DNA from: Gammaproteobacteria bacterium
Lineage (GTDB): Bacteria; Pseudomonadota; Gammaproteobacteria; GRL18
NCBI GenBank assembly: GCA_016744395.1
Contig: JADGEK010000012.1
Coordinates: 2,986-66,985, forward strand
Reading direction: 5' to 3'
DNA length: 64,000 bases
The notes below the pieces were generated by a model. The model did no database searches. It saw only the letters and a program-made list of their open reading frames with translations, and had not been told where the DNA came from. The position numbers were made by a program, and so were the translations under genes. Shown here piece after piece: positions 629 to 27,844 of this stretch (its first letter is position 1; each line of letters begins with the position of its first letter).

Positions 629-3553
629 ATGAAAAGCAAACTAATCAATACTCAATGTAAAACAATTTTCTCCCTCACTCTCCTTTTTTTGTTTATTCTT
701 TGTTTTACGCCAATGGTCTATGCAAAAAATGATACAAAAGCCTGTATCAATATGGCCAAAAGTGGATTATTAAAAATTTCTGATGATCGTTCAAAACGTT
801 TTCTTGGCAAAGTAGATGAAGATACTGCTCGTTGTCGTGGTGATGAAAAACCAATACCGTATCTCGATACTCCCTGGGTAGACTGGTCTAATTATTACTC
901 CACAGGTGATAGCAGTAGCCGTTTTGAAGGGCAAGAAGCCATTACCAAACTAGGGAAACATTTATTCCCAAATGGTCGAGGAATTGATGGCTCTTTAATT
1001 GATCTAGAATATCAACGTATAGAATTAATAAAATTTAACCTCTTTGATCAGGACACTTATACTGACTACATTTTAGGGCGTGATGGCCAAGCAGGTTCAA
1101 CGTTAAAATACTGGGATGAAATGCGTCTGCCTCCTGAGCATTTGAATTATCAGGACGTAGGTGGTAATGACAAACAATTATGTCAGGGGGATTTGATTAC
1201 CCACAGAACACTGACAGGCATTTGTAATGATTTAGTCAATCCACTGATGGGCTCATCAGGAATGACTTTTGGTCGAAATATGCAATTTGAAACCACCTTT
1301 CCAAGGCTTGGTTTAAATCAGTTAACACGTAACAGACATGGGCAACGAATCAGTTTGCTTAAGCCTGATCCTCAATTAATCAGTCGAAAATTATTTTCCC
1401 GAGAGCAAACATCTGGCAATGGTTGCCATCAGGGAATGGGTGATAAAAACTATTCTAGCAACGCCAATTGTGATTATCTTAAAGCACCCTTTTTTAATGT
1501 TCTCGCCGCTTTCTGGATTCAGTTTATGACTCATGACTGGTTTTCCCACACCATTGAGGGTCATAATAAAAAAGAATTAACAACCGTAGGTTGTTCCTCA
1601 GCCGAAGCCCGAGCCTTAGGCTGTCGTGAAAAGGATAGACGGGAACCTTCTCTCTATGCAAAAACGACAACGCCTGAAACCTTCACAAAGGATGGTCAAA
1701 GCTATAGTAATAGAGCAGCAAAAACAACTCATAATCAGGTGACAGCCTGGTGGGATGCTTCGCAGATATATGGCCATGATGAAAGTTCTCTAAAGCGGGT
1801 ACAACGTGATCCCAATGATCCTGCTAAATTACTGCTTATTAATAATTATCTGCCCTTATTGCCCACTTGTGACACATACACAGAAGACTGTCCCGTACAA
1901 TCACAATGGCAAGGTCAGGAAGCTGCGGGCTTTCCTGCAAACTGGAGTATTGGTACTAGCTTTTACCACAATTTATTTACTCGTGAACATAATTACTTTG
2001 TTGAGCAATTCCGCATAATGCAAAAACAATCACCTGAAGTAGATTCTGGTCTGAGAGATCCTTTGGATGCAAAAGTCGTTATTCGTCTAAAAGACGTTGA
2101 TGATGAACGTTTGTTTCAAGTAGCACGTTTAGTAGTTGCTGCTGAAATTGCAAAAATTCATACTATTGAGTGGACCACACAATTATTATATGACGAACCT
2201 TTATTTGCTGGCATGAATTCAAATTGGTACGGCTTGTTTAATCATGAAGAAGATCGAGTTTCTAAAATTCTCAAGCGCTTATTCAACAAGGATGAAAATA
2301 TACTATCCCGTAAATCAGCCAAGGCAGCAGGTGGTTTGGTTAATTCTTCCAATCCCAAGAAGGCCAATTCAATATATTCGGTATTAGCTTCTGGTGCAGG
2401 TATTTTTGGGATTGGTAATCAAAAAATGAAAGGATTTTTATGGTGGAAAAAAGATGCCTGGGATTTAAATAATCTGGAAGAGGATGTGAATGGTGGTATC
2501 AATCATTTTGGTTCGCCGTTTAATTTCCCTGAAGAATTTACCTCAGTTTACCGCTTACATGCTCTTGTACCCGATTTAATTGAGTATCGTGAAGTTAACA
2601 AGCCAAACAAGATCGCTTTAAAAATACCAGTGTTAGATACTGTCAGAGGTAAAGCCACGGACATGATGCAACAACGGGGTATCGACAGTTGGGCCTTAAG
2701 TATGGGACGACAACGTTTAGGACTTCTGCATCTAAAAAACCAACCCTTATTTTTACAAAACTTACCGATGCCGCAGCTTAATTCTAAGACTAAAAAACTG
2801 GATATTGTAGCCTTAGATTTAATTCGTGATCGGGAACGTGGTGTGCCTCGGTTTAATGAATTTCGACGCCAGATTGGTCTTAAAACCCTAAACAGTTTTG
2901 ATGATTTTATTGATCAACGTCTTGACAAAAATAGTCCACAACGCAAGCATCAGGAAGAAAATATCATCCAGATGCGGGAAATTTATGGTACTCATACCTG
3001 TGATGCCAGTAAAATTATTTCAACGGTGCAACGTAATAAGGATGGAAATTATATTAATGACTGTCTTGGTCATCCTGATGGTTCGGTTGTTGATAACATA
3101 GAAGATGTCGATAATGTTGTTGGTTGGCTATCTGAATATACACGGCCACATGGTTTTGCTATTTCTGAAACACAATTTCATATTTTTATCATTAACGCCT
3201 CACGTCGACTTTTCAGTGATCGTTTTTTTACTTCCAGTTTTCGTCCTGAATTTTATTCAACTCTGGGTTATAACTGGGTACTCAATGATGGTCAGCTTTC
3301 TGAGTGCCCCTATCCTGTTAGTACTATGAAAGATGGTGAAAAAGTCTGTCAGGAGCCAGATAAAATTAATGACCATGTGATGAAAGTATCTCCTCTCAAA
3401 CGGATCATGATGCGTAATATTCCAGAGCTTAAAAAAGAATTAATGGCAGTGAAAAATATTTTTGACCCTTGGGCAAGAGACCGAGGTGAATTTTATTCAC
3501 TGGAATGGAAAGCACGTCAGGGTGCTGAAACAGATTCGGCTTTTTCTCAATAA
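629..3553 (+). CDS. Secreted haem oxygenase of the animal-haem-peroxidase/cyclooxygenase superfamily (fatty-acid alpha-dioxygenase/COX-like)
   Basis: N-terminal Sec-type signal (hydrophobic stretch ending VYA/KND). Distal-His motif FWIQFMTHDWFSH (His codon 1532-1534). Proximal motif PEEFTSVYRLHALVPD, with Tyr (2549-2551) three residues before His (2558-2560), as in plant alpha-dioxygenase SVYRMH and COX YHWH. A purine-rich RBS-like stretch (AAGGGAA) lies upstream of the ATG. Confidence 0.8.
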   Translation: MKSKLINTQCKTIFSLTLLFLFILCFTPMVYAKNDTKACINMAKSGLLKISDDRSKRFLGKVDEDTARCRGDEKPIPYLDTPWVDWSNYYSTGDSSSRFEGQEAITKLGKHLFPNGRGIDGSLIDLEYQRIELIKFNLFDQDTYTDYILGRDGQAGSTLKYWDEMRLPPEHLNYQDVGGNDKQLCQGDLITHRTLTGICNDLVNPLMGSSGMTFGRNMQFETTFPRLGLNQLTRNRHGQRISLLKPDPQLISRKLFSREQTSGNGCHQGMGDKNYSSNANCDYLKAPFFNVLAAFWIQFMTHDWFSHTIEGHNKKELTTVGCSSAEARALGCREKDRREPSLYAKTTTPETFTKDGQSYSNRAAKTTHNQVTAWWDASQIYGHDESSLKRVQRDPNDPAKLLLINNYLPLLPTCDTYTEDCPVQSQWQGQEAAGFPANWSIGTSFYHNLFTREHNYFVEQFRIMQKQSPEVDSGLRDPLDAKVVIRLKDVDDERLFQVARLVVAAEIAKIHTIEWTTQLLYDEPLFAGMNSNWYGLFNHEEDRVSKILKRLFNKDENILSRKSAKAAGGLVNSSNPKKANSIYSVLASGAGIFGIGNQKMKGFLWWKKDAWDLNNLEEDVNGGINHFGSPFNFPEEFTSVYRLHALVPDLIEYREVNKPNKIALKIPVLDTVRGKATDMMQQRGIDSWALSMGRQRLGLLHLKNQPLFLQNLPMPQLNSKTKKLDIVALDLIRDRERGVPRFNEFRRQIGLKTLNSFDDFIDQRLDKNSPQRKHQEENIIQMREIYGTHTCDASKIISTVQRNKDGNYINDCLGHPDGSVVDNIEDVDNVVGWLSEYTRPHGFAISETQFHIFIINASRRLFSDRFFTSSFRPEFYSTLGYNWVLNDGQLSECPYPVSTMKDGEKVCQEPDKINDHVMKVSPLKRIMMRNIPELKKELMAVKNIFDPWARDRGEFYSLEWKARQGAETDSAFSQ

Positions 3554-3576
3554 TACAGTTCTCAATGAGGGTCTGA

Positions 3577-4671
3577 ATGATGATGAATCAACAGACAGTT
3601 TGGTGCTATCAATTACATGTCTCATACAAATTCCTACTACTGATTGTATTAACATCTGGATGTAGCAGCACTGGAAATGATGCAAGTATTGAGCAATTAG
3701 AGGCTGAAATGAATCAGCGTATTGAATTAATTTCACGTTCTGAAACTGAAGTGAATATTGAAAGTCAGAGTAATGAAATATATGGAAATGTATTACAAAA
3801 AAAAGTAATACCAAGATTTAATCAAGCAAAAACAGTCGCCTGCCTGAATGCACACTTTCAGGTTCATGATAAGCTTCCTGAAAATTTACAGCATGGGATC
3901 TTTTCTTCAGCAAAGAATTATCCCGCTATACTACGGTTTGCTAACGCCACAAATCATGATGATTCTAAAAAAGACATCCGAGGAGTATCAATCAGACTTT
4001 CTAATGTCGAGGGAGATATACTTTGGGGGCAGCCAGGAATTCAGGACTTTATTTTTAATAGTTATCCAGCCCTGTTTGTCGCCACACCAGAACAATTTTT
4101 AGAATTTATTCAAGCCCGTCAGGAAGATGCCAAACTCAGTTTCTTTTTTAATCCTTTTAACCCACATCTTAAATCCTTCTGGATTGTTTTCAAGGCTCGG
4201 GAAAAACATAAGAGTCTGTTTGATATCCGTTATTGGAGTACCGTCCCATTTCAGTTAGGAGAAGCCACTGATCAGGTGGTGAAATATTCACTCATACCCT
4301 GCTCTGATTATACGACCAAGAAAGTAGTGAGCCCTGGTGAACATCAATTCCGAGGCGCCATGAAAAAACATCTAAAACAGACTCAGGCTTGTTTTTATTT
4401 CGCCGTTCAACCACAAGTTGATGTTCAAACAATGCCCATAGAAGATGCATCTGTCATCTGGGACGAAACAGTTTCACCCTTTCAAAAAGTGGCGACAATC
4501 CGTATTAGTGAGCAGAACTTTGATACTCCTGACGCTTTGAAGGCTTGTGAACAGAGCAGTTTTAATCCCTGGCAAAGCCTCAGTGCACATAAACCTTTAG
4601 GCAAAATGAATGCAGTACGCCGTAGTGTTTACGATAAGGCTGCAAAGCTTCGAGGTTCTGGTTTCAAGTGA
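3577..4671 (+). CDS. Small catalase-related haemoprotein, probable lipoprotein
   Basis: Lipobox-like VLTSGC after a hydrophobic N-terminus. Catalase-core-like HGIFSSAKNYPAILRFAN...DIRGVSIRL. C-terminal proximal-Tyr-type motif RRSVYDKAAKLR. Paralogous to the 8071-9267 product. Confidence 0.7.
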   Translation: MMMNQQTVWCYQLHVSYKFLLLIVLTSGCSSTGNDASIEQLEAEMNQRIELISRSETEVNIESQSNEIYGNVLQKKVIPRFNQAKTVACLNAHFQVHDKLPENLQHGIFSSAKNYPAILRFANATNHDDSKKDIRGVSIRLSNVEGDILWGQPGIQDFIFNSYPALFVATPEQFLEFIQARQEDAKLSFFFNPFNPHLKSFWIVFKAREKHKSLFDIRYWSTVPFQLGEATDQVVKYSLIPCSDYTTKKVVSPGEHQFRGAMKKHLKQTQACFYFAVQPQVDVQTMPIEDASVIWDETVSPFQKVATIRISEQNFDTPDALKACEQSSFNPWQSLSAHKPLGKMNAVRRSVYDKAAKLRGSGFK

Positions 4672-4743
4672 TTATATTAGAGTGATGCGTTTAGAATGAT
4701 TGGTTTAACATTTATTAAAAATTCATACCATGGAGTATTCGTC

Positions 4744-5193
4744 ATGCATAGCACCGTTGAATTATGGTTAGGTAAGTCCAGAGACGAACTGGATGAAATT
4801 TATCGAAATGCCATCCCTGGAGAGATTCCTTCAGGAGATACACGTGGTACGGCTATTCTTAGTGGTTCCGTTTTTTCTAAAATAATCGCTCTATTGGCTC
4901 GTATTTTTTTCTGGCAGGGAAAAGTGTTTGATTTATATTGTCCCTGTGGCCAGGCTGGGCTGCTTGTTAATAAAATTACTCCCTTTAGTCTGACTTTTAT
5001 TGTGGCCAAAGTGTATAAAGAGAATAGTTGGCTTGACGAAAAAGACACGATAGTTATTGATTACTCTAAGACATCGTTCTTTGCAAAAGCAATCAGAGAT
5101 GAAATTCGTGAGGTGGAACCTGGCGTGTACCTGGGTAAAGTCTGGTGGGGAAAAACACGAATTTTAGATTTCGCTCTGACTCAGGCGGATTAG
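4744..5193 (+). CDS. Hypothetical protein (about 149 aa)
   Basis: ORF 4696-5193 from the track. I prefer the ATG at 4744 because GGAG lies 9 nt upstream. No family recognised with confidence. It is packed between haem-enzyme genes. Confidence 0.5.
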   Translation: MHSTVELWLGKSRDELDEIYRNAIPGEIPSGDTRGTAILSGSVFSKIIALLARIFFWQGKVFDLYCPCGQAGLLVNKITPFSLTFIVAKVYKENSWLDEKDTIVIDYSKTSFFAKAIRDEIREVEPGVYLGKVWWGKTRILDFALTQAD

Positions 5194-5195
5194 CA

Positions 5196-6500
5196 ATGAC
5201 ACCTCAATCAACATTTATGATTGTGGCCTCAGTTCGTGAAGGTCAGTTAGACAAGCTCAGAACACTGCTGGCCAGCATGAATAAAAGTAATACTCAAGTC
5301 GACCCTAATAATACTTTAGTCCCTTTTGCCCAATACAGTCACTTGCATGTTGCCCGTTTTGTTATTCTTGAAGCAAATACTGCTGATGATATTAAAGAAT
5401 ATGGGCTAGCACCCTACCCATGGCAACCAGCTCTGGCATTTCTCGGAGATTGTGATGGTGATAGTAATATTTTTCTTGCGCAATTGGTCGCAAGAAGTGA
5501 ACCTGGACTAAAAAAAATATTTGCCCATTGTGATGATTTTTCTTCGCATGAGATAAACTTATTGAACTGGTTCAAAGCACATAGTCATACACCCAATGCA
5601 AACTATATCAATTGGATTGGGCGCACCGTCACACAGGTCCATGAAGAAGCCATATTACATAAAAAATTATCCGCTTATCTGCAAAAAATTGTTGAAGATA
5701 TTGGCCCTGGCAATGCACGCGCCATACGGCAAAAACTCCTGTCCTATATTGAATTTGAAAAGTATGAAGGCCGACTTGTCTTGACCCCAGTAGAACCCAG
5801 TTCGATTTTGTGGACTATAAGCAATCTATGGCATAAATTATCTATTCCACTGTTTCTACTACTATTACTGCCCCTATTTCTTATCTCTGCACCCTTTTAT
5901 GCCTGGTATTTACGAAAGCTTGAACGATCTGATCCTGAAATTGTTATTCGACCTGAGCGTCAATATATCGAAACCTTATCACTTCAGGAAGATCACACTA
6001 TAACTAATCAATTTAATGTCCTGGGTGAAGTAAAGCCAGGTTTGTTTCGTTTGTATACCATGAAGTTTGCTCTATTTTTACTCAACTATGCTTCCCGGCA
6101 CATTTATAATCGCGGCTTTCTCACCCGAGTAAGAACCATTCATTTTGCCCGCTGGGTACTGATGGATAATAATCGAAGAGTGTATTTTGCCAGTAATTAC
6201 GATGGTAGTCAGGAAAGTTATATGGATGATTTTATAAACAAAGTTGGTTGGGGATTAAATCTGGTCTTTAGTAATGGTGTCTCCTACCCGCAAACAAAGT
6301 GGTTGATTAAAGGCGGAGCAGGACATGAACAAAAATTCAAACAAACACTGAGACGACATCAATTGCCTTCAGAAGTCTGGTATAAGGCCTACCCCGAGCT
6401 CACGGCTTACGAGATCTCACGCAATATGCTTATTCGACTAGGAGTAGAGGTACGTCAGGCCAATGATAAACAGATACGTGAATGGTTAGCCTTGATCTAA
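5196..6500 (+). CDS. Unknown protein with a central hydrophobic hairpin (DyP-neighbour protein)
   Basis: Track ORF 5145-6500, trimmed to the in-frame ATG at 5196, 2 nt after the upstream stop. Central hydrophobic stretch SIPLFLLLLLPLFLISAPFYAWYL. C-terminal IHFARWVLMDNNRRVYFASNYDGSQESYMDDF. Confidence 0.55.
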   Translation: MTPQSTFMIVASVREGQLDKLRTLLASMNKSNTQVDPNNTLVPFAQYSHLHVARFVILEANTADDIKEYGLAPYPWQPALAFLGDCDGDSNIFLAQLVARSEPGLKKIFAHCDDFSSHEINLLNWFKAHSHTPNANYINWIGRTVTQVHEEAILHKKLSAYLQKIVEDIGPGNARAIRQKLLSYIEFEKYEGRLVLTPVEPSSILWTISNLWHKLSIPLFLLLLLPLFLISAPFYAWYLRKLERSDPEIVIRPERQYIETLSLQEDHTITNQFNVLGEVKPGLFRLYTMKFALFLLNYASRHIYNRGFLTRVRTIHFARWVLMDNNRRVYFASNYDGSQESYMDDFINKVGWGLNLVFSNGVSYPQTKWLIKGGAGHEQKFKQTLRRHQLPSEVWYKAYPELTAYEISRNMLIRLGVEVRQANDKQIREWLALI

Positions 6501-6556
6501 CAATTGGCTGGCATACATAGGTAAAACTGAGAAGATAACACTTTAGGAAGAATACA

Positions 6557-8074
6557 ATGAAAAGTGCTGATCATTTTGAATTTGACGATCTCCAGGGATT
6601 GCTGAGATTTAGTCATGGGCATTTGACAGAAACTTGCTTTATGTTACTCAACGTCAGTAATTCCATAGCCGCAAAACAATGGCTTAAAGCAGCATCTATT
6701 ACTAATGCGAGCTCAGTGCACCCATTACCTGAAACTGCAGTTCAGATTGCTTTTTCTGTGGCTGGCTTGCGTATTCTTGGATTAAATGAACGTCTTATCG
6801 AACAATTTTCTGATGAATTTATCGTTGGAATGGCAGGTGATGAGAGTCGCTCCCGGCGTTTGGGTGATATTGCAGCCAATGACCCAAAAAATTGGCAATG
6901 GGGTGGTGATGCCCAACAGGTTCCTCATGTCTTATTATTACTGTATACCAAGGATGGTCTAATGAAAAATTTTCGTAGACATCTTGAGGACAAAAACTTT
7001 CATCAGGCATTTCAATTGCACAGTGTTTTACCGACACTGGACATTGGTTTGATTGAACCTTTTGGCTTTGCTGATGGCATCAGTCAACCCAAAATTGACT
7101 GGACTGACAAGCAAAGTACAGACATTCATGAACGTGAAGGCTATTCCAACACAGTAGCCATTGGGGAAGTGGTTTTGGGTTATCCCAACGAATATGGTGA
7201 ATACACAAACAGGCCTCTAGTTAATCCTAAGTTACAACCTAATTCAGAGAAACTTAAAACCGCATACGATGATGTATCACTCAAAGATCTGGGGCGAAAC
7301 GGCAGTTATCTCGTCGTTCGACAGCTGAACCAGGATGTACCAGGTTTCTGGCAATATCTCCATAAGCAAAGTTACTCTGACACAGACAAACGCAATGAGC
7401 TTGCTGCATCAATGGTGGGTAGACAACGCAATGGTGATCCTTTGATAACATCTCGTGTGCAATCAACTCATAATGCAGCAGAAGATAAGAATGATTTTAC
7501 TTATGAGCAAGATTTACAAGGACATCAATGTCCCTTTGGTGCGCACATTCGTCGTGCCAACCCACGTACTGGTGATTTCCCCCATGGAGTAACAGGTTTT
7601 TTTAATCGTCTGATTAAAATTTTGGGCTTTGGTTTAAACAAACCTGATGATGATTTGATTGCAGCCACCCGTTTTCATCGTTTACTGCGCCGTGGACGCA
7701 GTTATGGCTCCTTTATCAGTCCAGAGGATGCAATCAAGGCCAATGACTCTGATGAAGAACGAGGTCTACAGTTTATGTGTCTGGTAGCCAATATCACACG
7801 CCAGTTTGAGTTTGTTCAGAATGCATGGATGATAAGCAGTAAGTTCAATGGTGCACACCAGGAAAGTGATCCCTTATTAGGTCATCGGGAACCTTTACTT
7901 AGTGGAGAACCTAGCAATGAGTTTAGCCGCCCTATGGCATCTGGATCAAGGCAGACGGTCTGTAATTTACCACAATTTGTGACACTCCGAGGCGGTGCTT
8001 ATTTTTTCATGCCAGGGCTAAGTGCCATTCAATATATTGCTTCCTTGCCATCGAACAAGGATGATTTGTCATGA
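6557..8074 (+). CDS. DyP-type haem peroxidase
   Basis: GXXDG motif GFADGISQP, proximal-His region GAHIRRANPR, distal-Arg region LLRRGRSYG, and C-terminal QFEFVQNAW. No signal peptide is visible. Confidence 0.85.
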   Translation: MKSADHFEFDDLQGLLRFSHGHLTETCFMLLNVSNSIAAKQWLKAASITNASSVHPLPETAVQIAFSVAGLRILGLNERLIEQFSDEFIVGMAGDESRSRRLGDIAANDPKNWQWGGDAQQVPHVLLLLYTKDGLMKNFRRHLEDKNFHQAFQLHSVLPTLDIGLIEPFGFADGISQPKIDWTDKQSTDIHEREGYSNTVAIGEVVLGYPNEYGEYTNRPLVNPKLQPNSEKLKTAYDDVSLKDLGRNGSYLVVRQLNQDVPGFWQYLHKQSYSDTDKRNELAASMVGRQRNGDPLITSRVQSTHNAAEDKNDFTYEQDLQGHQCPFGAHIRRANPRTGDFPHGVTGFFNRLIKILGFGLNKPDDDLIAATRFHRLLRRGRSYGSFISPEDAIKANDSDEERGLQFMCLVANITRQFEFVQNAWMISSKFNGAHQESDPLLGHREPLLSGEPSNEFSRPMASGSRQTVCNLPQFVTLRGGAYFFMPGLSAIQYIASLPSNKDDLS

Positions 8075-9267
8075 ACATAAAGACTCCAATTCTAAGATTC
8101 ATTCACTCTATTATCCTAGTTTTCTTACATATTGAACGCAGGTTGGAGCCCTGGTTCCGGCCCCAATTAAACCGTTTATTTCGAGAATTCATCGCTAATA
8201 TTACTCAGTATTTTATTAATTTTCAACGTAAGAATGAAGGTATGGAACTCGCACAAGAATTCATTACTCCTGATGAGGATCAAAGCCTTGATGATATCAT
8301 TGACTTGATGGCTGATCAGATGCGAGGACATTTTAAGCCTGGTCATTATGAACGAGGGGGAAATACAAAAACTCATGGAATTGTTCGTGCGCAAGTCATT
8401 ATTCATAAAGATCTCCCAGAAAAATTTCGTCATGGAATTTTTTCCAAAGCGACAACTTATGAGGCTTATGTGCGTTTTTCCGGGCCAGGACCCGATGTAC
8501 CCACTGATATTGACGATGTTGGTTTTGTCAGTATGGCAGTCAAATTGCTGGATGTACCTGGAGAAAAACTGCTGGATGAAGAAAAAATGACACAAGATTT
8601 CATCACGATCTGCACCCCCACTTTTGTGACTCCCAATACCCGTGAAAATGCGAAACTTCAGTATTGGAGTTTAATCGATATGCCTGTTTATTATTTCATA
8701 AACCCCAAAGATCCTCATTTTTTGGATTTAATCATGCAAGGTTTATGGAATGAAACCCAATATAACCCTCTGGGTCAGCGATATTGGAGTTGTGTTCCTT
8801 ATTTAATGGGTGAGGGTCAAGCAATGATGTATTCCTTTGTACCAAAAACTGAGGTTGAAAAACATATCTCTGGACTACCCTTTGGTACACCACCTGTTAA
8901 TTATTTACGAGATAATATGACAAAAACTCTAGCAGAAAAAGAAGTTGAATTTGATCTGATGGTACAACTACAGACTGATCCACATTTGATGCCAATCGAG
9001 AATGCGGCAGTTCGCTGGCCTGAAAAATTGTCTCCATTTATTTCAGTAGCCACAGTACATATCCCAAAGCAAAGTTTTAACTCTGAAGCTCAGTTTAAAT
9101 TTGCACAAAATCTTAAAATGAATCCATGGCATTGTATCCCTGAACATCGACCTTTGGGTAATCAAAATCGAGCACGTTTAAAGATGTATTATGAATTATC
9201 AAAATTCCGTCAGGAAATGAATCAGACAAAACATGTAGAGCCCAGTGGTAAAGAAATATTTGAATAA
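8071..9267 (+). CDS. Small catalase-related haemoprotein (second paralog)
   Basis: ATGA start/stop overlap with the DyP gene. Catalase-like GNTKTHGIVRAQV (distal-His position), HGIFSKATTYEAYVRFSGPG, and a C-terminal proximal-Tyr-type motif RARLKMYYELSKFR. Confidence 0.7.
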   Translation: MNIKTPILRFIHSIILVFLHIERRLEPWFRPQLNRLFREFIANITQYFINFQRKNEGMELAQEFITPDEDQSLDDIIDLMADQMRGHFKPGHYERGGNTKTHGIVRAQVIIHKDLPEKFRHGIFSKATTYEAYVRFSGPGPDVPTDIDDVGFVSMAVKLLDVPGEKLLDEEKMTQDFITICTPTFVTPNTRENAKLQYWSLIDMPVYYFINPKDPHFLDLIMQGLWNETQYNPLGQRYWSCVPYLMGEGQAMMYSFVPKTEVEKHISGLPFGTPPVNYLRDNMTKTLAEKEVEFDLMVQLQTDPHLMPIENAAVRWPEKLSPFISVATVHIPKQSFNSEAQFKFAQNLKMNPWHCIPEHRPLGNQNRARLKMYYELSKFRQEMNQTKHVEPSGKEIFE

Positions 9268-9377: not shown

Positions 9378-10808
9378 TTATAAAGGTTTCAAATTGTGAT
9401 CTTTCAGGTTAATCAGTTTATCGGTTTGTTGGCGATTAAGTATCAAATCAACCAATGTCGTTGTATTTGGGTATAAAAAAGAAGTCCCTTCTCCGTCTTT
9501 TTTCGTACCATCATAGACAACAAATGTACCAGTTTTATAAGAAATATTAGGCAAAGGACTCGCAGCACTTACCTCCATAATAAGTCGAGCCTTCGATTGA
9601 TTTAAGGTTGCTTGCATTTCAGAAAGACTGTTGAGCTTGAGCATGAGTACCCTACAAGAAGGGTCAGCTGAGTGTTTATAATATTTTTTATTAAGTTGAT
9701 CATCAATCTCATGGGATAACTTAGAAAGCTCATTTTTTTTATCACCAGTCAAACCATTATCAACATAAAAGTGGATATAATAATCTTCAACAGAGCGATC
9801 GACATCATCGCGTGCGCTAAAAAAGAATTGTTGATACTTGTCTTTATAACGCCCTTCAGCCTTTAGATAATTTTTTTCGTTAATTTCCCTGAATTTCTCG
9901 GCTACTTCTGAATACTCATGAGAACTATTTACACTCATCGCTTTCTTGACCAATGACTTCGGTCCGATTCTTCTCTTAAAAGGCGCTTTGTTTGCCTCAA
10001 TTAAGGAACCGTGATTCATTTCATGGAAAACAGCAAAAGGGATATGATTAAATTTATTTTCTTTATGCCATTTTACCTTAGCAGGCTGTCCAGGGCTTAA
10101 AAAATCAATGGTACATTTTCTGGTATTGAGATTTGTGCCACAAATCCTTACCGTTCCATCGGTCCCTGGTTTTTTTCGGGCTTTTACGACAAAGGACTCC
10201 GCTTTGTCAGCATAATCAAACCCAGCAGCAAAAACAAAAGGATAGCATGTCAGATTTTCGTCCTCATTATTTAAAAAATAGTCAAAACCATGTAAATCCA
10301 TTTCTGAAAGTTCCCACTGAAAGGGACTGGCAGGTTCTAAGGCCTGCAAAACAATCTTACCTGACTCAAAAAAGTCCTCAGCCTTATATGAAAAAGGATT
10401 GAAAAAAGTTGAACGTAATCGCCCAAGAACTGATTGTCCCATGCTTGCCAGGTCAGAACCAAAGTTTGCAGGCGCAAAAAAAAGAATCCGTTTTACAGGG
10501 CAATCTATCTTAAGCCCCAACTCAATTTGGCGTTGACGGCGAAGGGCAAGCCAACTTCTTACAACTAACGCACCTGTACTGTGACAAGCTACATTAATTC
10601 GTTCGCCCTTATCAAAGTGTTTACTATAATCAGTATCTAGTTTATCAGCAAAATCACGAAAGGTCGCCTGATCATCCATACTCGCATAATCCGTATGAAA
10701 AACGTCTTTTTTATCTATTTTTAAATGTTCAACAAAAAAATCACGCAAACTTTTAAAGCTCATGGAACTATCAGAATATCCATGAATGATTAGCATTTTC
10801 TCAGCCAT
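9378..10808 (-). CDS. Alpha/beta-hydrolase (lipase/esterase-like) with an unknown C-terminal domain of about 300 aa
   Basis: N-terminal MLIIHGYSDS, a nucleophile-elbow-like VACHSTGALVVRSW (H-S-T-G), and FFAPANFGSDLA. The remainder is unrecognised. Confidence 0.6.
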   Translation of the reverse strand: MAEKMLIIHGYSDSSMSFKSLRDFFVEHLKIDKKDVFHTDYASMDDQATFRDFADKLDTDYSKHFDKGERINVACHSTGALVVRSWLALRRQRQIELGLKIDCPVKRILFFAPANFGSDLASMGQSVLGRLRSTFFNPFSYKAEDFFESGKIVLQALEPASPFQWELSEMDLHGFDYFLNNEDENLTCYPFVFAAGFDYADKAESFVVKARKKPGTDGTVRICGTNLNTRKCTIDFLSPGQPAKVKWHKENKFNHIPFAVFHEMNHGSLIEANKAPFKRRIGPKSLVKKAMSVNSSHEYSEVAEKFREINEKNYLKAEGRYKDKYQQFFFSARDDVDRSVEDYYIHFYVDNGLTGDKKNELSKLSHEIDDQLNKKYYKHSADPSCRVLMLKLNSLSEMQATLNQSKARLIMEVSAASPLPNISYKTGTFVVYDGTKKDGEGTSFLYPNTTTLVDLILNRQQTDKLINLKDHNLKPL

Positions 10809-11098: not shown

Positions 11099-11674
11099 TT
11101 ATGAGTCTTCTTCAGTATATGCTTCAACTATTGCACTATTAATTTGATAGCCTGCTTCACCAATTTCAGTTGTTGTTTTATCTAAGGTGAGTTTTCCAGA
11201 AATTTGTATTGGCTGATCTGCATCATCGATACTAATTTCTTGTCCAGGTGCTGTTTTAACGAGTATTGTTTGATTAGCTGGTGGTGCTGGAACGTGAATA
11301 CAGGCACCAAAATAAGGGACTAATAAAAACTCACTGATTTTTCCATTATTTTGTGTTAAAGGTGCAATAAAACCTGGTAGTTTAATCTGTTTATTGGCCA
11401 GTTTTTTATTGAGTGGAGCGACTGCCATTTCATCAATAATTTTTTGATAAATTATTTCCGCTTGAGAAGAGTCATCTCTTAAACTATCAATTTCTTCTTT
11501 ATATTTTAATATAATGGCGTTTGGGGAATATTCATCAGGGATTAGATCATCCCACTCAATTTCCTCTGCTTCCTGAATACTTTGAGCAATATTTTTTTCC
11601 TGGACCTCTACTGAACTGTCCTTCTCACAAGCGAATAAAAATAAAAAACAAAAAAATACAATATAATTTTTCAT
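11099..11674 (-). CDS. DUF3299-type lipoprotein (ZrgD-like)
   Basis: Lipobox LFACE. Hallmark EFLLVPYFGACIHVPAPPANQ. Last gene of the ZrgA-type cluster. Confidence 0.7.
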   Translation of the reverse strand: MKNYIVFFCFLFLFACEKDSSVEVQEKNIAQSIQEAEEIEWDDLIPDEYSPNAIILKYKEEIDSLRDDSSQAEIIYQKIIDEMAVAPLNKKLANKQIKLPGFIAPLTQNNGKISEFLLVPYFGACIHVPAPPANQTILVKTAPGQEISIDDADQPIQISGKLTLDKTTTEIGEAGYQINSAIVEAYTEEDS

Positions 11675-11684
11675 ATAGTTCCTA

Positions 11685-12941
11685 CTAAAATTTGACGGTT
11701 AAACCATCAGTTAATGATTGTTTGTAAGCAATATATCCTGGTATTAAACTTAATAACAAACTTAAAAAAACTGCAATGATTAATATTACAAACTGTTCAC
11801 TATCAAGAAAATTAATGGCCAGATGTAAACCATATAATTCAGTAATCAACGGCTGAATCAATATTTGTATCAGGTATAATGAAAGAACGCCAAAAAAACA
11901 GCCTGATGAAACCACAAATAATGCTTCTAAAGAAAACAGTATCATAATGTGATAAGGATGTGCACCCACTGCTCTGAGCACTGCCATTTCGCGACGGCGC
12001 TCATTTAATGTTGATAATAATGTAGTCAACAAACCCATCAGCCCTGAAAGCAAGACTAACGTCGATATAGTCATTAGTATTTTTTCAAAACTGCCCACCA
12101 TCTGCCATAAATTAGCCAGCGTGCTACCTGGCACAATAGCCAAAAGAGGTTCTTTGTTAAATTGGTTGATTTTACGCTGTAGACGAAATGTATCAATTTT
12201 TCTTTCAAGTCCAAGCATAAATGCAGTGATAGACTTTGGTTTTAAGGATGATTCTTGTGTTTGTTCAGCAGAGATGCTTAATGAAGAGCGTGAGCCTGAT
12301 TGCCAGCCTATATGAATAGCTTCAATGCCAGATAGTGAAACATGAATTGTTCTGTCAACTGGGGTGCCAGTCTTTTTCAAGATGCCAACAATACGAAAGG
12401 GTTTATCATCATGTTCTGAAAATTTTGTAGAAACAATACCATGAGATAAAATAATTTGTTTCCCAAGCGAATATTTTAATTGGTGAGCAACATCATAGCC
12501 AATCACAGCATCGTAAATATGATTAAACGCAGAGCCTGATAAAAATTTAAGTTGCTGAGAGTCTGCATATTGATAGTGACGAAAAAAATCTTGTGTGGTA
12601 CCCATAACTCTAAATCCACGATGAGAATCTCCCAGAGAAATGGGTACTGACCATTTAACTGATTTCATTTTTATAATGTCTTGATAAGATGCGTAGGATA
12701 CATTATTAGTTGCATTACCAATGCGAAAAACACTATACAATAATAGATTAATTGGTCCACTACGGGCACCAACAATCAAGTCTGTTTGCGAAATAGTATT
12801 TAAAAAAGTATTTTTAGCTTCTTTACGTATTTTATCAACACCCATCAATAAAAATATACTAATGGCAATTGATATCATAGCCAGGGATAAACTGGTTTTT
12901 CGATTCCACGCACTTTTGGCTGCCAATTTAAATAGTTTCAT
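11685..12941 (-). CDS. ABC transporter permease, FtsX/MacB-like (ZrgC-like)
   Basis: 418 aa. One N-terminal TM segment, a large periplasmic loop, three C-terminal TM segments, and the motif ERRREMAVLRAVGA. Confidence 0.8.
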   Translation of the reverse strand: MKLFKLAAKSAWNRKTSLSLAMISIAISIFLLMGVDKIRKEAKNTFLNTISQTDLIVGARSGPINLLLYSVFRIGNATNNVSYASYQDIIKMKSVKWSVPISLGDSHRGFRVMGTTQDFFRHYQYADSQQLKFLSGSAFNHIYDAVIGYDVAHQLKYSLGKQIILSHGIVSTKFSEHDDKPFRIVGILKKTGTPVDRTIHVSLSGIEAIHIGWQSGSRSSLSISAEQTQESSLKPKSITAFMLGLERKIDTFRLQRKINQFNKEPLLAIVPGSTLANLWQMVGSFEKILMTISTLVLLSGLMGLLTTLLSTLNERRREMAVLRAVGAHPYHIMILFSLEALFVVSSGCFFGVLSLYLIQILIQPLITELYGLHLAINFLDSEQFVILIIAVFLSLLLSLIPGYIAYKQSLTDGLTVKF

Positions 12942-12954
12942 TTGCCCTCCCCTA

Positions 12955-13644
12955 TTAAATTAAATCTACTTGATTAATATCTGACATTTCAACAACTCTG
13001 GAAAAATATTTTGCCAAATAAGGATCATGACTGACAAAAATGATGGTGCTTTTTTGTTGATCAGCTTCATAAAATAATAGTTCTAAAAATTTCAAACGAT
13101 TTTCTGTATCTAAAGCAGAAGTTGGTTCATCGGCGATAATTATTTCAGGGCTTCCAATCAGAGCTCGGGCGACTGCAACACGTTGTTGTTGACCCACGCT
13201 TAATGTATTCACTGATTTTCCAAATAAGTTTTTAGGTATTTGTAATTCTTGAAGTAAATTAACACTGGTTTGGTGTAAATCATCGATACGACTCATTCGT
13301 TTGTCAGAAAACCAACATGGTAATTGAACATTTTCCAGTAATGTCAAATAGGGTAAAAGATTGAATTGCTGAAATATTACCCCTAAATGATCGACTCTAA
13401 ATTGATCTAATTGAGTGCTCGATAAATTATTTAGCTCTACATCCAGGACTTGTACGCTTCCGAAATTCGGTTTATTGATTCCAGTAAGAATGTTTAACAG
13501 TGTTGTTTTCCCACTACCGCTGCTACCCTGAATAAATAAGTGCTCTCCTTGAGCAATTGTTAATTGATTAATATTTATTATTTCTGCAACGTGTGATGAC
13601 CAACTAAAGTGAACATCATTTAATTGAATAACGGGATTTTCCAT
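12955..13644 (-). CDS. ABC transporter ATP-binding protein (ZrgB-like)
   Basis: Walker A GSSGSGKTT, ABC signature LSVGQQQRVAVARAL, Walker B IIIADEPTSALD. Confidence 0.9.
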   Translation of the reverse strand: MENPVIQLNDVHFSWSSHVAEIININQLTIAQGEHLFIQGSSGSGKTTLLNILTGINKPNFGSVQVLDVELNNLSSTQLDQFRVDHLGVIFQQFNLLPYLTLLENVQLPCWFSDKRMSRIDDLHQTSVNLLQELQIPKNLFGKSVNTLSVGQQQRVAVARALIGSPEIIIADEPTSALDTENRLKFLELLFYEADQQKSTIIFVSHDPYLAKYFSRVVEMSDINQVDLI

Positions 13645-13826
13645 TTGTAAAAAGTCCTTAAAAGCATCTTGAAAATTTAAAACTTAATAACTGAATTAAC
13701 GCTACTTTTAACCGACCCATTCTTCAGAAAAGGAATTTGGAGGATTGAAAATCAACAACTTATCCCCCTATGGTCCCCCTTTGAAAAACAGGGAAGCTAA
13801 AAAATTAATCTAGAGATGGTCAGTAA

Positions 13827-14381
13827 TTAGAAATCAATATGACTATTGTTGATGCTTAAAGTCTTTGCTGATTGCTTATTATTAGACAGCCATTGAACAT
13901 CCAGTTGCTCAAAACCTGGAAAATTCTCAAACAGAGGTTTTAAGTTAACATTGGTTAAGTGCTTATTATCACCGCATTGATACTGATAAATCACTTCAAA
14001 CTCACTATGAGCTTCCTCATGAGCTTCTTCCTCGTGATGGTGAATTTCATCATTTTTATGGGAAAATGGTGACTCCACTTCAACAGATTTCAATTTGCAT
14101 TGTGCAGATTTTGGTATTATCAGAATGTTATCCGTTGTTTTCAAACGTGTAATAGCATTGGCTAGTAGTTGTTGCTGTTTTTCTGTTTTAGGTTGATGTT
14201 CAAAGCCTAAAATATTATGAGCAGGGCTGTGCAATTCAATGATGACATCCTCTTTGGAAATGGCGATTGCAAGTTCAGCTTTACCATGCTGATGTGCATT
14301 TTGTTGACGAGACTCTGTTTCAGCATAGGAAAAACCACTAAAAACAATAAAAAAAACAATAAGACATTGACTCATTTTCAT
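13827..14381 (-). CDS. zrgA: Zinc uptake protein ZrgA-like (DUF2796), periplasmic and His-rich
   Basis: Signal peptide. His/Glu tract HHHEEEAHEEAHSE plus scattered His residues. It sits directly upstream of the ABC ATPase, permease and DUF3299 genes, as in the Vibrio zrgABCD arrangement (recalled, not searched). Confidence 0.6.
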   Translation of the reverse strand: MKMSQCLIVFFIVFSGFSYAETESRQQNAHQHGKAELAIAISKEDVIIELHSPAHNILGFEHQPKTEKQQQLLANAITRLKTTDNILIIPKSAQCKLKSVEVESPFSHKNDEIHHHEEEAHEEAHSEFEVIYQYQCGDNKHLTNVNLKPLFENFPGFEQLDVQWLSNNKQSAKTLSINNSHIDF

Positions 14382-14985: not shown

Positions 14986-16353
14986 ATGAAAACGAATAAG
15001 ACATTAAGGCTGCTTTTTATTGCCACCTTAATCAGTGCTATTTATGCTTGTCAACACATTGATACAATTGAATCCAGCAGTCGAATTGAACAGGATTTAA
15101 GTGCACATAGCCAGTGGCAGTCTGAACAGTTTCATGCACAAACTGTTATACAACTCATAGACTTGCTGGCAATTCCTGAACTAAATGAATTGATTAATCA
15201 AGGTCTAAAGAATAATCCTGGCATTCAAAGTACCGCTTTAGCCATTCAAGTGGCTTACCTTCAGAAAAAAGTGACTCGAAGTGATGCTTTACCTGCAGTT
15301 CAATTGGATCTTGATGCAGATAACGCAAAGGGTAATGATACAACCTATAGCAATCGTTTGTCAGTGAGTTGGGAGCTGGATTTATGGGAAAGAATAGCAG
15401 ATTCTGTACGTCGAGACGAAATGTCAATTGCTCAAATTCAAAGCAATTATCAGGCGACTCGTGATGCTTTGGCTGCAGATATTATGCGTAACTGGCTGAA
15501 TATTATATACCAACAGCAACTGATCAAAACAGAAAAACAACGTCTTGGGGTTTTAAAAAAGAATCAAGATATTATTTTAAAGCGCTATCGAGTGGGTCTT
15601 GGAGAACTGGAAGATTTAGACACAGCCAATAGTACGATTGCTTCCACAAAAGGGACTCTGGTCGAGTATGAAGAAGAATTGGCCAATGCACATCGAAGTT
15701 TAAAGCAAATACTTGGCGAGCTGGCAATTGATTATCACCTGCCCACAATATCACATTTCCCCGCTGTGATTGTTCCTCTTGCAACTGAGCCTAAATTTGA
15801 TCTGGCAAGACGTCCTGATTTACAGGCAATTTATTATGATATTCTCGCAAAGCAATATGCCGTCAGTGTCGCCTATAAAATGTTACTGCCCCGCTTTAGT
15901 TTAACGGCTTCTTTAGAAGAAAGTAACTCCGATCTGAGTGATGTTTTATTTAAAAGTCCTGCATGGAATTTATTAGGGAATTTAACAGCACCTCTATATC
16001 AGGGTGGAATGCTCAGGGCTGAAGCTGAAATTGCAGAACTAGATAAGGAAAAGGCTTTTTTAAATTATAAAGAACAATTACTAGAAGCGGTATATGAGGT
16101 TGAAACAGGCTTAAGTCGTGAATATGCATTAGAACAACAACAAACCCATATTCGTGAGGCATTAAGAAATGCAAAACGCAGTGCGGCACACTATCAGCTT
16201 AAATATCGTAAAGGACTGGTTGATGTTTTGGATCTACTCACAGTTCAGAAAAAAACCTTTGATTTACAGATTCAGGTCACACAAATTATGTATCAGCAAT
16301 TAACGAATCGTATTGATCTCGGTCTGGCATTAGGATTAGGAGTAATGAAATGA
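14986..16353 (+). CDS. Efflux outer-membrane factor lipoprotein (NodT/TolC family)
   Basis: Lipobox AIYAC. Two-repeat OMF architecture with typical coiled segments. First gene of the RND operon. Confidence 0.8.
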   Translation: MKTNKTLRLLFIATLISAIYACQHIDTIESSSRIEQDLSAHSQWQSEQFHAQTVIQLIDLLAIPELNELINQGLKNNPGIQSTALAIQVAYLQKKVTRSDALPAVQLDLDADNAKGNDTTYSNRLSVSWELDLWERIADSVRRDEMSIAQIQSNYQATRDALAADIMRNWLNIIYQQQLIKTEKQRLGVLKKNQDIILKRYRVGLGELEDLDTANSTIASTKGTLVEYEEELANAHRSLKQILGELAIDYHLPTISHFPAVIVPLATEPKFDLARRPDLQAIYYDILAKQYAVSVAYKMLLPRFSLTASLEESNSDLSDVLFKSPAWNLLGNLTAPLYQGGMLRAEAEIAELDKEKAFLNYKEQLLEAVYEVETGLSREYALEQQQTHIREALRNAKRSAAHYQLKYRKGLVDVLDLLTVQKKTFDLQIQVTQIMYQQLTNRIDLGLALGLGVMK

Positions 16354-17510
16354 TAATAAATATAAAAGGAATGCCTATTATAGTGACTTTATTAGCCGTT
16401 GCCAGCATCATGGCTGCTATCAGTTATAATGCTGAAAACATGAAGCAACAAGAAATGGGCAATGTAAAAACTAAATCACTGAAGGCTCCTGACATTAGCG
16501 TTGTTAAAGTGCAACAGGCTGATTTTCAATCGGTTATAACTGGTTATGGTGAGGCACAGGCACACTATCAACTGGAGCTCACGAGCGAAGTGAGTGGAAA
16601 AATTGAAATATTATCAGCAGTGTTAGAAACAGGCCATAATATTAAAACATCTGATTTATTGGTGACATTGGATGATACTCAATACAAAGAGGCACTAGCA
16701 ACAGCCAAAGCAGATTATGCTGATGCCAGACTGGCTTTACTTGAGGAGCAAAGACGAGGACAACAGTCTCAATTGGAGTGGGAGCAATCTGGCCTAAAAG
16801 GAAAACCAGAATCCCCACTTGTCTTACGTCAACCACAATTAGACTTTGCACAGGCACGATTAGAACAAGCCAAAAACACACTTAAAACAGCACAGAAAAA
16901 CCTCAGTAAAACAAAGATCCATGCCCCTTTTAATGCGGTGGTAGTCAAGCGAAATGTTCAGCCTGGTCGTTTTCTACAAGTGGGAACTGCCATTGCCACT
17001 GTCTATAGCACTGATAAAATTGAAGTCATGATCCCTCTTTCAGGAAATAACTGGCAGTTGCTGACTCAAATAAAAAAAGGGGATCACAAATTCTGGACTA
17101 TTACTTTAACTAACATTGAAAATCAACAGCAATGGCAAGGCTATGTTGGTCGAGTTGAACAACATATCGATAATGACAATCGTCAACGAACTTTGGTAGT
17201 GATTGTTGAGGATCCCCTTCAACAGAAAATACCATTGTACCCAGGGACTTTTTTACGTGCAGAAATACCAGGAAAGATTTTACAAAATATCTGGCGTATC
17301 CCTGCCTCTGCCATTTCTCAAACGGGTGATATATGGGTGGTTGCTAAGGATAATACTTTAAGTCGATATCCTGTCACAAAACTTTATGGACAGGGAGAGT
17401 TCAGCTATATCCTACCCGTCAATGCTCAACAGCATGCATTAATTGTTTTAAGACCACTTAATAGTTATGTTGTAGGGATGCAAATAAACCCAAGAGAGAA
17501 CAAATCATGA
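16350..17510 (+). CDS. RND efflux periplasmic adaptor (membrane fusion protein)
   Basis: ATGA overlap with the upstream gene. N-terminal TM segment, a coiled-coil hairpin region, and the lipoyl/beta-barrel motif KIHAPFNAVVVKRNVQPG. Confidence 0.8.
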   Translation: MIINIKGMPIIVTLLAVASIMAAISYNAENMKQQEMGNVKTKSLKAPDISVVKVQQADFQSVITGYGEAQAHYQLELTSEVSGKIEILSAVLETGHNIKTSDLLVTLDDTQYKEALATAKADYADARLALLEEQRRGQQSQLEWEQSGLKGKPESPLVLRQPQLDFAQARLEQAKNTLKTAQKNLSKTKIHAPFNAVVVKRNVQPGRFLQVGTAIATVYSTDKIEVMIPLSGNNWQLLTQIKKGDHKFWTITLTNIENQQQWQGYVGRVEQHIDNDNRQRTLVVIVEDPLQQKIPLYPGTFLRAEIPGKILQNIWRIPASAISQTGDIWVVAKDNTLSRYPVTKLYGQGEFSYILPVNAQQHALIVLRPLNSYVVGMQINPRENKS

Positions 17511-21321: not shown

Positions 21322-21337
21322 TGTTTAAGAGAATATA

Positions 21338-27358: not shown

Positions 27359-27367
27359 AAATATTTC

Positions 27368-27826
27368 ATGAACTATGACAATAAAGATTTAGTAATAAAG
27401 AAATATACAAAAGAAAGCAATCAAAGTACTGCTGCTTTTGCCAACCCTCACCAATTGATTCAAATGCTGATGCAAGGGGCATTAGAAAAAATAGCGATTG
27501 CCAAAGGATTTATGAAAAATGGTAATATTGCAAAAAAAGGTGAATATATCTCATGGGCTATTTCTATTATTGAAGGCTTGAGAGTCAGCCTGGATCATAG
27601 CCTGGAAGGAAGAATTTCAGAAAATTTGGAATCTTTGTATCTTTATATGAATAATCGTTTGGCTCTGGCTAATTTGAATAATTCACAAGAAATGTTGGAT
27701 GAGGTCACAGGCTTATTGCTTGATATTAAATCCGGTTGGGATAATATTTCCCAGGATGTGATTGATGAGCATGCTAATAGTGTAGCAGGTCTTCGTCCAG
27801 AATCTTTAACAAATACTAAAATTTAA
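27368..27826 (+). CDS. fliS: Flagellar export chaperone FliS
   Basis: NPHQLIQMLMQGALEKIAIAKG...KGEYISWAISIIEGLRVSLD. Positioned just after fliD. Confidence 0.85.
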   Translation: MNYDNKDLVIKKYTKESNQSTAAFANPHQLIQMLMQGALEKIAIAKGFMKNGNIAKKGEYISWAISIIEGLRVSLDHSLEGRISENLESLYLYMNNRLALANLNNSQEMLDEVTGLLLDIKSGWDNISQDVIDEHANSVAGLRPESLTNTKI

Positions 27827-27844
27827 TATTAAAGCCCGAACTTT

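Follow-up and report, generated by a model that had tools for sequence, protein, structure and literature searches.

A conserved six-gene cluster around an exported alpha-dioxygenase-type enzyme: a candidate bacterial operon for fatty-acid oxidation

The window analysed here is a stretch of 64,000 nucleotides from a gammaproteobacterial genome of the GRL18 lineage (assembly GCA_016744395.1, contig JADGEK010000012.1), and our subject is a cluster of six genes close to its start, called g1 to g6 (Table 1). According to the listing of open reading frames (ORFs), the six plus-strand ORFs are uninterrupted by any other long ORF. Using the homolog-supported starts of g3 (ATG 4744) and g4 (ATG 5196), the g1-g2, g2-g3, g3-g4 and g4-g5 spacings are 23, 72, 2 and 56 bp, and g5 and g6 share a 4-nt ATGA overlap. 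This agrees exactly with the preliminary description of the locus, made from the sequence alone, of six same-strand genes with gaps of 2-72 bp or an ATGA overlap. The alternative upstream ATG of g3 at 4696 has no homolog support. Promoter and terminator scans gave counts no higher than those of shuffled controls and are therefore uninformative on the boundaries of the operon. A scan of the window with Rfam detected no RNA element.

Table 1. Genes of the cluster and other features of the window (positions are those of the window)
Feature	Position	Strand	Description
g1	629-3553	+	974 aa; predicted secreted haem dioxygenase, alpha-dioxygenase type, peroxidase-cyclooxygenase superfamily
g2	3577-4671	+	364 aa; predicted small catalase-related haem protein; lipobox LTSGC
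g3	4744-5193	+	149 aa (165 aa from ATG 4696); possible FABP/calycin-like lipid-binding barrel
g4	5196-6500	+	434 aa from ATG (alternative GTG start 5145); predicted membrane-anchored DyP partner domain
g5	6557-8074	+	505 aa; predicted class V (C/D-type) DyP haem peroxidase
g6	8071-9267	+	398 aa; predicted second catalase-related paralog, coupled to g5
PlaB-type phospholipase A homolog	9378-10808	-	476 aa; convergent, next after g6
Probable zinc-uptake set	11099-14381	-	ZrgA-family protein, ABC ATPase, FtsX/MacB-type permease, DUF3299
RND efflux and two-component genes	14986-22603	+	OEP, HlyD-type adaptor, AcrB-type pump, then OmpR-type response regulator and histidine kinase
EF-hand protein	22704-23399	-	four EF-hands
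Flagellar genes	26045-32776		FliD, FlgK, FlgE
CHASE2-GGDEF-EAL protein	34768-37230		
CHAD protein	49907-51445		

The product of g1 matches the Pfam family An_peroxidase (PF03098; E 5e-67). Its closest solved structures are the alpha-dioxygenases (alpha-DOXs) of rice and Arabidopsis (4kvj, 4hhr; E ~1e-57), whereas true peroxidases (peroxinectin, LPO, MPO) score just ~1e-4. We mapped the residues of the rice enzyme onto g1 through a HMMER alignment, with a construct offset of +3 that was verified on four motifs; the residue list and the roles were taken from PMC8720084. In rice alpha-DOX, H157 and H382 are the distal and proximal His and Y379 is the catalytic Tyr, while H311 and R559 bind the carboxylate, T316 positions the alpha-carbon, and F375 and F552 are stacking residues (PMC8720084). 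All 13 rice residues compared (H157, H311, W315, T316, F375, Y379, H382, F549, F552, I553, A556, R558 and R559) are kept in g1. They include the distal His (H302), the proximal His (H644), the catalytic Tyr (Y641), the carboxylate-binding pair H511/R860 and the alpha-carbon-positioning T516. The channel residues W515, F637, F850, F853, I854 and A857 correspond to rice W315, F375, F549, F552, I553 and A556. The catalytic Tyr precedes the proximal His by three residues, which is the Tyr-x-x-His signature of the dioxygenases. The 13 catalytic and substrate positions are invariant in all 78 family members taken from related loci, and this complete alpha-DOX site sets g1 apart from true peroxidases devoid of a fatty-acid channel.

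The preliminary description had called g1 a cyclooxygenase (COX)/alpha-dioxygenase-like oxygenase. The substrate motifs of linoleate 10S-dioxygenases (10S-DOXs) are IMxxYIxxITP in the central part and GRxxSxIPAxxARxIGxDA in the terminal part (PMC13049297); in their place, g1 carries the alpha-DOX motifs AKIHTIEWT and FHIFIINASRRL. A 10S-DOX- or COX-type assignment was rejected because the substrate motifs of both, as quoted in PMC13049297, differ from those of g1. Only the alpha-DOX half of the initial label is therefore retained.

The Sec secretion of g1 and the lipoprotein nature of g2, also proposed at the outset, were both recovered, in the form of a Sec signal in g1 (MKSK...PMVYA, with cleavage before KND) and of the lipobox LTSGC in g2. 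Signal peptides are conserved in the g1 family, some members having one of the lipoprotein type, and the family has ten invariant Cys residues that form five conserved pairs. The signal peptide and the ten Cys residues thus indicate that g1 is extracytoplasmic. Taken together, g1 is an exported protein with the complete predicted active site of a fatty-acid alpha-dioxygenase.

The plant and cyanobacterial alpha-DOXs (OsaDOX, 4kvk/4kvj; the Arabidopsis enzyme, 4hhr; CsDOX, CalDOX and LepDOX) have the same fold as g1 and share with it the distal and proximal His, the Tyr of the Y-R-x-H motif, the stacking Phe, the His/Arg pair for the carboxylate and the Thr next to the alpha-carbon. In contrast with these single enzymes of ~530-640 aa devoid of signal peptides, g1 has 974 residues, five Cys pairs and a signal of the Sec or lipoprotein type, and its gene is part of a conserved operon with several haem enzymes. 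The known alpha-DOXs are either cytosolic or monotopic and, to our knowledge, those that have been characterised work as single enzymes. Proteobacteria and Acidobacteria are noted to have putative alpha-DOX sequences that are uncharacterised (PMC8720084).

We scanned for relatives of g1 using one genome per species and found them in at least 595 species-level genomes. Eighty loci were kept and scored by tblastn, 60 of which were informative, i.e. with at least 6.5 kb of downstream sequence. The six genes are present in the same order and on the same strand in 38 of the 60 informative loci, while seven have g1-g2-g3 only and 12 have g1 alone (Manganitrophus, Acidobacteriota, Methylomirabilota). 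The g1-g2 pair is adjacent in 46 of the 60, and the identity of g1 among relatives is 55-85%. The six-gene order spans Gammaproteobacteria, Desulfobacterota and Sulfurovum; its hosts include Chromatiales, Sedimenticola, a lucinid symbiont, Granulosicoccus, Cellvibrionaceae, Methylomonas/Methylomicrobium and many Desulfobulbales/Desulfuromonadales. With order and strand shared by 38 of the 60 genomes, chance is far from a sufficient explanation of the arrangement, which is inherited as a block across phyla. The neighbourhood on which the preliminary description depended is thus conserved in relatives.

A variant of the operon was found in six loci (L038, L040, L042, L048, L050 and L058), in which g1(-g2)-g3 are accompanied by genes for two paralogous RoxA/FadCcp-like di-haem proteins that stand in place of g4-g6. 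Each of these proteins, of ~500 aa, has an N-terminal membrane anchor and two CXXCH motifs ~215 residues apart, and the A and B forms are ~35% identical. The tandem paralogous di-haem pair is also the architecture of the Pseudomonas aeruginosa oleate diol synthase PA2077/PA2078 (FadCcp, RoxA-like di-haem), a periplasmic operon for fatty-acid oxygenation. The likeness noted here is one of architecture, and the P. aeruginosa proteins differ in being soluble and 624-634 aa long. The window itself lacks di-haem proteins, with g4-g5-g6 in their place.

Profile searches bore out the family assignments of the preliminary description for g1 (An_peroxidase), g5 (DyP) and, weakly, g2 (Pfam Catalase, E 1e-6), and g6 followed through its paralogy with g2. 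A profile of 25 g2 homologs matched the coral allene oxide synthase (cAOS; 1u5u) at 2e-9 and Mycobacterium avium MAP_2744c (3e4w) at 1.5e-7, while true catalases scored ~1e-4; the coral allene oxide synthase (AOS)/hydroperoxide lyase domains (1u5u, 3dy5) and MAP_2744c are thus better matches of g2 than the true catalases. On its own, g6 had no match in Pfam and NCBIfam, even at E = 10, or in the PDB, whereas aligned with the g2 family by hhalign it gave a probability of 100, an E-value of 1e-58 and 30% identity. Judged from these comparisons, g2 and g6 are paralogs of the small catalase-related cAOS/MAP_2744c type, with which they share their size (~320-400 aa, ~33-43 kDa) and the proximal Arg...Tyr motif. 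This RxxxY haem-ligand motif is invariant in both families (Arg348/Tyr352 in g2, Arg369/Tyr373 in g6).

The distal side is different. We set the distal-His column by alignment to the R-x-x-H-A-K motif of catalases and by the ungapped spacing to the downstream Asp/Pro, so that the assignments for g2 and g6 are at the level of sequence alignment, not of coordinates. The residues used for comparison were Thr66-His67 and Asn137 of cAOS and Asn148 of human catalase. In the column of His67, there is an invariant Gln83 in g2 and an invariant Asn98 in g6. The distal Asn is kept in g2, as the invariant Asn161 aligned to cAOS Asn137 and human catalase Asn148; in g6, an invariant Thr101-His102 pair is found displaced four residues downstream of the distal-His position. 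As the canonical distal His is missing, AOS- or lyase-like chemistry is not to be assumed for these proteins. Thus, of the initial proposal of two catalase-related proteins that rearrange or cleave fatty-acid hydroperoxides, the family holds and the chemistry does not follow from it.

The location of g2 varies among hosts. It is a lipoprotein in the window and a lipoprotein or a secreted protein in Gammaproteobacteria, and in Desulfobacterota (L002, L007-L009, L011 and L014) it has neither a signal peptide nor a lipobox, with the adjacent g1 still exported. As for g6, its start overlaps the stop of g5 in 29 of the 38 six-gene loci, by either 4 or 1 nt, and in the window it is predicted to be translationally coupled to g5 through the ATGA overlap.

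The protein encoded by g5 matches class V DyPs with E-values of 1e-58 to 1e-29, the best being PDB 8re3 (1.5e-58), with DyP2, AnaPX and fungal DyPs at ~1e-38. Profile scores are modest: 72.3 bits for TIGR01413 (E 4e-20), below the curated cut-off of 100.5, 24.3 bits for Dyp_perox_C (cut-off 20) and 23.4 bits for DyP_N (cut-off 27.5). The catalytic residues Asp173 (in FGFADG, the GXXDG motif), His330 and Arg378-381 are invariant in 20/20 sequences, and g5 is hence described as a class V DyP with a complete predicted catalytic set. It shares the two-domain signature, the GXXDG Asp, the proximal His and the distal Arg with class V DyPs (8re3, DyP2 4g2c, AnaPX 5c2i, fungal enzymes), from which it differs in being paired, and elsewhere fused, with the 434-aa, predicted membrane-anchored g4 and coupled to the catalase-related g6. 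We know of no described DyP with a g4-type partner and coupling to a catalase-related protein. Inspection for signal sequences revealed no export signal in g5.

The g4 protein has a single hydrophobic segment of 29 residues in its hydropathy profile, at 211-239. Its family is very large: clustering at 90% identity leaves more than 6000 clusters, and clustering at 50% leaves 2909 representatives. None of these more than 6000 homologs is named or has a Pfam match. Searches of Pfam and NCBIfam with g3 and g4 returned nothing even at E = 10. However, natural fusions of 812-1066 aa, with an N-terminal g4 domain and a C-terminal DyP, were found (P0487, P0402, P0499 and P0484), and the DyP half of the two that were aligned to g5, P0487 and P0402, is 37% identical to it over its full length (E 1e-91). 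Because such fusion proteins exist, g4 can be regarded as a partner domain of the DyP, and this Rosetta-stone evidence leads us to predict that g4 and g5 act as one membrane-anchored unit. We also considered g4 as a divergent DyP/Cld-like protein, but the hhalign comparison of g4 with g5 was null (probability 0.1); the link is one of fusion and partnership, not of homology. Another member of the g4 family, P0393 (692 aa), is fused to a domain of the endonuclease/exonuclease/phosphatase family. For the N-terminal domain of g4 only, AlphaFold2 (AF2) and Foldseek gave a weak resemblance to ABM/ferredoxin-like folds, and a ferredoxin-like domain there is a weak lead.

The small g3 protein, devoid of a signal peptide, is 74-94% identical across phyla, and its 1342 homologs are all unnamed and without Pfam matches. 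The best Foldseek match of its AF2 model (pLDDT 61) is 4mve, an uncharacterised barrel protein (E 3e-5, TM 0.60), followed by weaker ones to FABP1, a bile-acid-binding protein and CRABP at E 0.06-0.7. A comparison of the g3 profile with PDB sequences gave noise only, so the barrel resemblance is structural alone, on a modest model. Thus, g3 may be a lipid-binding barrel of the fatty-acid-binding protein (FABP) type. An alpha-DOX-like gene is found alongside g3 in every cluster variant seen. For the two proteins initially listed as unknown, structure prediction and homology have therefore provided leads, namely the FABP-type barrel for g3 and the DyP partner domain for g4.

Several loci carry lipid-related genes. 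In the window, the convergent gene following g6 codes for a protein that matches PlaB, a phospholipase of Legionella (PDB 6zth), at E 1e-15 over residues 29-229, with a weak DUF7379 match. A Nitrosomonas sp. locus (L083; BQJB01000007.1, 1-17000) has g3-g4-g5-g6 after a different alpha-DOX-like gene, without g2. The alpha-DOX-like protein near g3-g6 is 28% identical to g1 with the same active-site motifs, and the locus also codes for a lipoxygenase (LOX), two patatins, an aldehyde dehydrogenase, a DUF5995 protein and a DUF900 hydrolase. In the JGI metagenome contigs L084-L087, genes for a Tle1-like lipase and two patatins are found directly downstream of the six genes, and the upstream LuxR/GerE-type regulator matches those at methanotroph loci. 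Patatin or LOX-like genes adjoin stand-alone g1 genes in L069, L075 and L076. These associations suggest free fatty acids as the substrates.

Some further observations were made at these loci. L083 has two An_peroxidase genes, one of them coding for an alpha-DOX-like protein of 779 aa with a TPR plus transmembrane N-terminus. Upstream of the cluster in L084, L086 and L087, the LuxR/GerE-type regulator is found with a TIR_2/SIR2-like protein and an nSTAND1 NTPase. Beside the three-gene variant of Thiosocius teredinicola (L001; CP019936.1, 14519-17655), an opposite-strand group codes for a fatty-acid desaturase and a bacterial globin, along with a small ferredoxin and a protein of the ferredoxin-NAD(P) reductase type, a neighbourhood related to lipids and O2. 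In L046, a gene for a fusion of a PAP2 lipid phosphatase with a TIR domain (12032-13324, plus strand) lies two genes downstream of the six-gene cluster. A conserved flanking regulator or lipase was looked for and discarded, only the LuxR/GerE-type gene being recurrent, upstream in methanotroph loci (4/81).

The closest precedent is a tandem of Nostoc punctiforme, in which a linoleate 10S-dioxygenase adjoins a catalase-related 10S-hydroperoxide lyase, as reported by Brash et al. 2014 and cited in PMC13049297. The precedent that the preliminary description had invoked, of a Nostoc COX relative with an adjacent catalase-related lyase, is thus real. On that account, the logic is the same as for the neighbouring g1 and g2 genes, i.e. 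a dioxygenase beside a catalase-related protein that consumes hydroperoxides. The differences from the tandem outlined there are the alpha-DOX-type motifs and the export of g1, the Gln at the distal-His position of g2, and the additional genes g3-g6. The cluster is of a known kind, that of bacterial oxylipin clusters combining a dioxygenase with catalase-related proteins, and several of its components are new. Our literature searches, whose coverage is incomplete so that a prior description is possible, brought up the Nostoc pair, the cyanobacterial alpha-DOXs and the Pseudomonas diol synthase, but no account of the operon, of the g3, g4 or g6 proteins, or of the g4-DyP architecture.

In sum, the data support an oxylipin or fatty-acid-hydroperoxide pathway as the predicted function. 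More specifically, we lean, though only slightly, towards the view that the six genes form one operon for the O2-dependent oxidation of free fatty acids, organized around the exported alpha-dioxygenase. Apart from the active-site identity of g1, we infer the steps of such a pathway as follows. Free fatty acids would first be liberated from the lipids of the envelope, perhaps by the PlaB-like phospholipase next to the cluster and, in other genomes, by patatin or Tle1-like lipases. The carboxylate of the fatty acid would be held on His511/Arg860 of g1 (rice His311/Arg559), the Tyr641 radical would remove a hydrogen from the alpha-carbon, and addition of O2 would yield a 2-hydroperoxy fatty acid. 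The g2 protein might then turn the hydroperoxide over, by reduction to the 2-hydroxy acid or by controlled breakdown to the Cn-1 aldehyde and CO2, or alternatively it might supply the peroxide that primes g1. The putative g3 barrel could shuttle the substrate or the product. The lipid product would then undergo a second peroxide-dependent step, carried out on the cytoplasmic side of the membrane by the membrane-anchored g4-g5 DyP with the coupled g6; alternatively, this unit would clear excess hydroperoxide. In some genomes, the two RoxA/FadCcp-like di-haem enzymes replace this module. The pathway might yield lipids that are hydroxylated or shortened in their chains, or an oxylipin signal, or else serve to turn over O2 and peroxide as a protection at oxic-anoxic interfaces.

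A number of points weigh against this pathway. The ~350 residues by which g1 exceeds the known alpha-DOXs of ~620-640 aa, in extra N-terminal, internal and C-terminal segments, are unexplained by the comparison with these enzymes. The predicted distal pockets of both g2 and g6 are devoid of the canonical His, with that of g6 also lacking the distal Asn, whose column has a variable residue, and their chemistry may differ from that of cAOS, hydroperoxide lyases or MAP_2744c. The confidence of the structural models is low, both for g3 and for g4 (pLDDT 54, no Foldseek match at E <= 0.001). Export signals are missing in g3-g6 and, in Desulfobacterota, also in g2, while g1 is always exported; the pathway is therefore not wholly in the envelope, which corrects the preliminary description, and a hand-over across the membrane has to be assumed. 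Lipase neighbours are sporadic, not universal, and the PlaB-type gene of the window had no tblastn match at the other cluster loci. Lastly, many host species are sulfate reducers, which is unexpected for an O2-dependent lipid pathway.

A first alternative is that the cluster is a detoxification battery, in which the four haem proteins scavenge peroxides or lipid hydroperoxides to protect the envelope and the membrane of bacteria that are microaerophilic, or anaerobic but exposed to oxygen, and g1 is not a deliberate maker of hydroperoxides. It would account for the membership of all four enzymes in peroxidase or catalase superfamilies and for hosts typical of oxic-anoxic gradients, such as Desulfobulbales, Sedimenticola, Thiodiazotropha, Sulfurovum and methanotrophs. 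It would also be in line with the relationship of g2 to the MAP_2744c-type proteins, which are reported by Pakhomova et al. (2009) to be peroxidases of organic hydroperoxides. Nevertheless, the invariant Tyr-x-x-His and the complete carboxylate site of g1 would have no role in a plain peroxidase, and the distal His needed by catalases for the heterolysis of H2O2 or ROOH is absent from g2 as well as from g6. The lipoxygenase, patatin and aldehyde dehydrogenase partners also suggest production and processing rather than scavenging alone, and we consider this explanation unlikely.

The compartment difference that complicates the fatty-acid oxidation pathway would be expected if the cluster comprised two independent, often adjacent modules, namely a periplasmic g1-g2-g3 dioxygenase and a cytoplasmic-face g4-g5-g6 DyP that possibly acts on a non-lipid substrate, linked merely by co-regulation or co-transfer. 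The modules are indeed separated in the loci that have g1-g2-g3 only or g1 alone, L083 combines g3-g6 with another alpha-DOX-like gene in the absence of g2, and the g4 family is far larger than the g1 subfamily. However, wherever we inspected g4-g6, an alpha-DOX-like gene was nearby, even one as distant from g1 as that of L083. Moreover, order, strand and short gaps are shared in 38/60 genomes across phyla, and g3 bridges both parts; independence of the modules hence appears quite unlikely to us. Finally, a conflict or defence effector that generates toxic lipid peroxidation products or destroys membranes together with phospholipases, under TIR/STAND-type sensor control, is very improbable: TIR/SIR2-like, nSTAND1 and TPR-S genes with patatin/Tle1-like lipases do flank the cluster in L084-L087 and a PAP2-TIR fusion lies downstream in L046, but PADLOC was negative for all six proteins and the PlaB homolog, TIR/STAND neighbours occur at few of ~50 loci, the neighbours in the window are zinc-uptake, RND efflux, two-component and flagellar genes, and the conservation of g3 (74-94%) and g1 (55-85%) is unlike that of fast-evolving defence genes. 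The operon for fatty-acid oxidation accounts better than these alternatives for the invariance of the fatty-acid site, for the conserved synteny and for the negative outcome of PADLOC.

A broader proposal, which we put forward tentatively and with more doubt than conviction, is that of a hitherto unrecognised, very widespread prokaryotic lipid-oxygenation machine composed of an exported long-form alpha-dioxygenase, a new FABP-like carrier, a membrane-anchored g4-g5 DyP complex of a new kind and the His-less catalase-fold proteins g2 and g6 coupled to it. The hydroperoxides made by the dioxygenase would reach the DyP complex by way of the carrier. If correct, this machine would be a source of oxylipins or of altered envelope lipids in bacteria of oxic-anoxic interfaces, among them sulfur oxidisers and sulfate reducers as well as methanotrophs and nitrifiers, with a chemistry of g2 and g6 distinct from those of known allene oxide synthases and lyases. 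Confirmation of the fatty-acid oxidation pathway itself would show how gradient-dwelling bacteria, including nominal anaerobes, use O2 for lipid remodelling or signalling, and it would provide new secreted alpha-dioxygenases for fatty-aldehyde biocatalysis.

Few bacterial oxylipin systems have been characterised. Besides the diol synthase of P. aeruginosa and the 10S-DOX/lyase pair of Nostoc, they amount to a handful of lipoxygenases and three alpha-DOXs from cyanobacteria. Among the hosts of the cluster are groups of central ecological importance, such as symbionts of lucinids and shipworms, Desulfobulbales, methanotrophs and nitrifiers. Our analysis offers testable functions for three large families of 'hypothetical proteins', those of g3, g4 and g6, and it defines a predicted membrane-anchored DyP architecture and putative catalase-fold haem proteins devoid of the distal His.

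Other features of the window are given in Table 1. The GC content of the cluster is 0.397 and that of the rest of the window 0.365, with other genes of the window at 0.33-0.445; recent horizontal transfer, as judged from composition, was discarded since the GC content of the cluster is not distinctive within the window. The probable zinc-uptake set that comes after the PlaB-type gene is unrelated to the six-gene cluster. It is followed by the RND efflux and two-component genes and by the gene for the EF-hand protein. The flagellar, CHASE2-GGDEF-EAL and CHAD genes further downstream represent the usual chromosomal surroundings in a motile bacterium.

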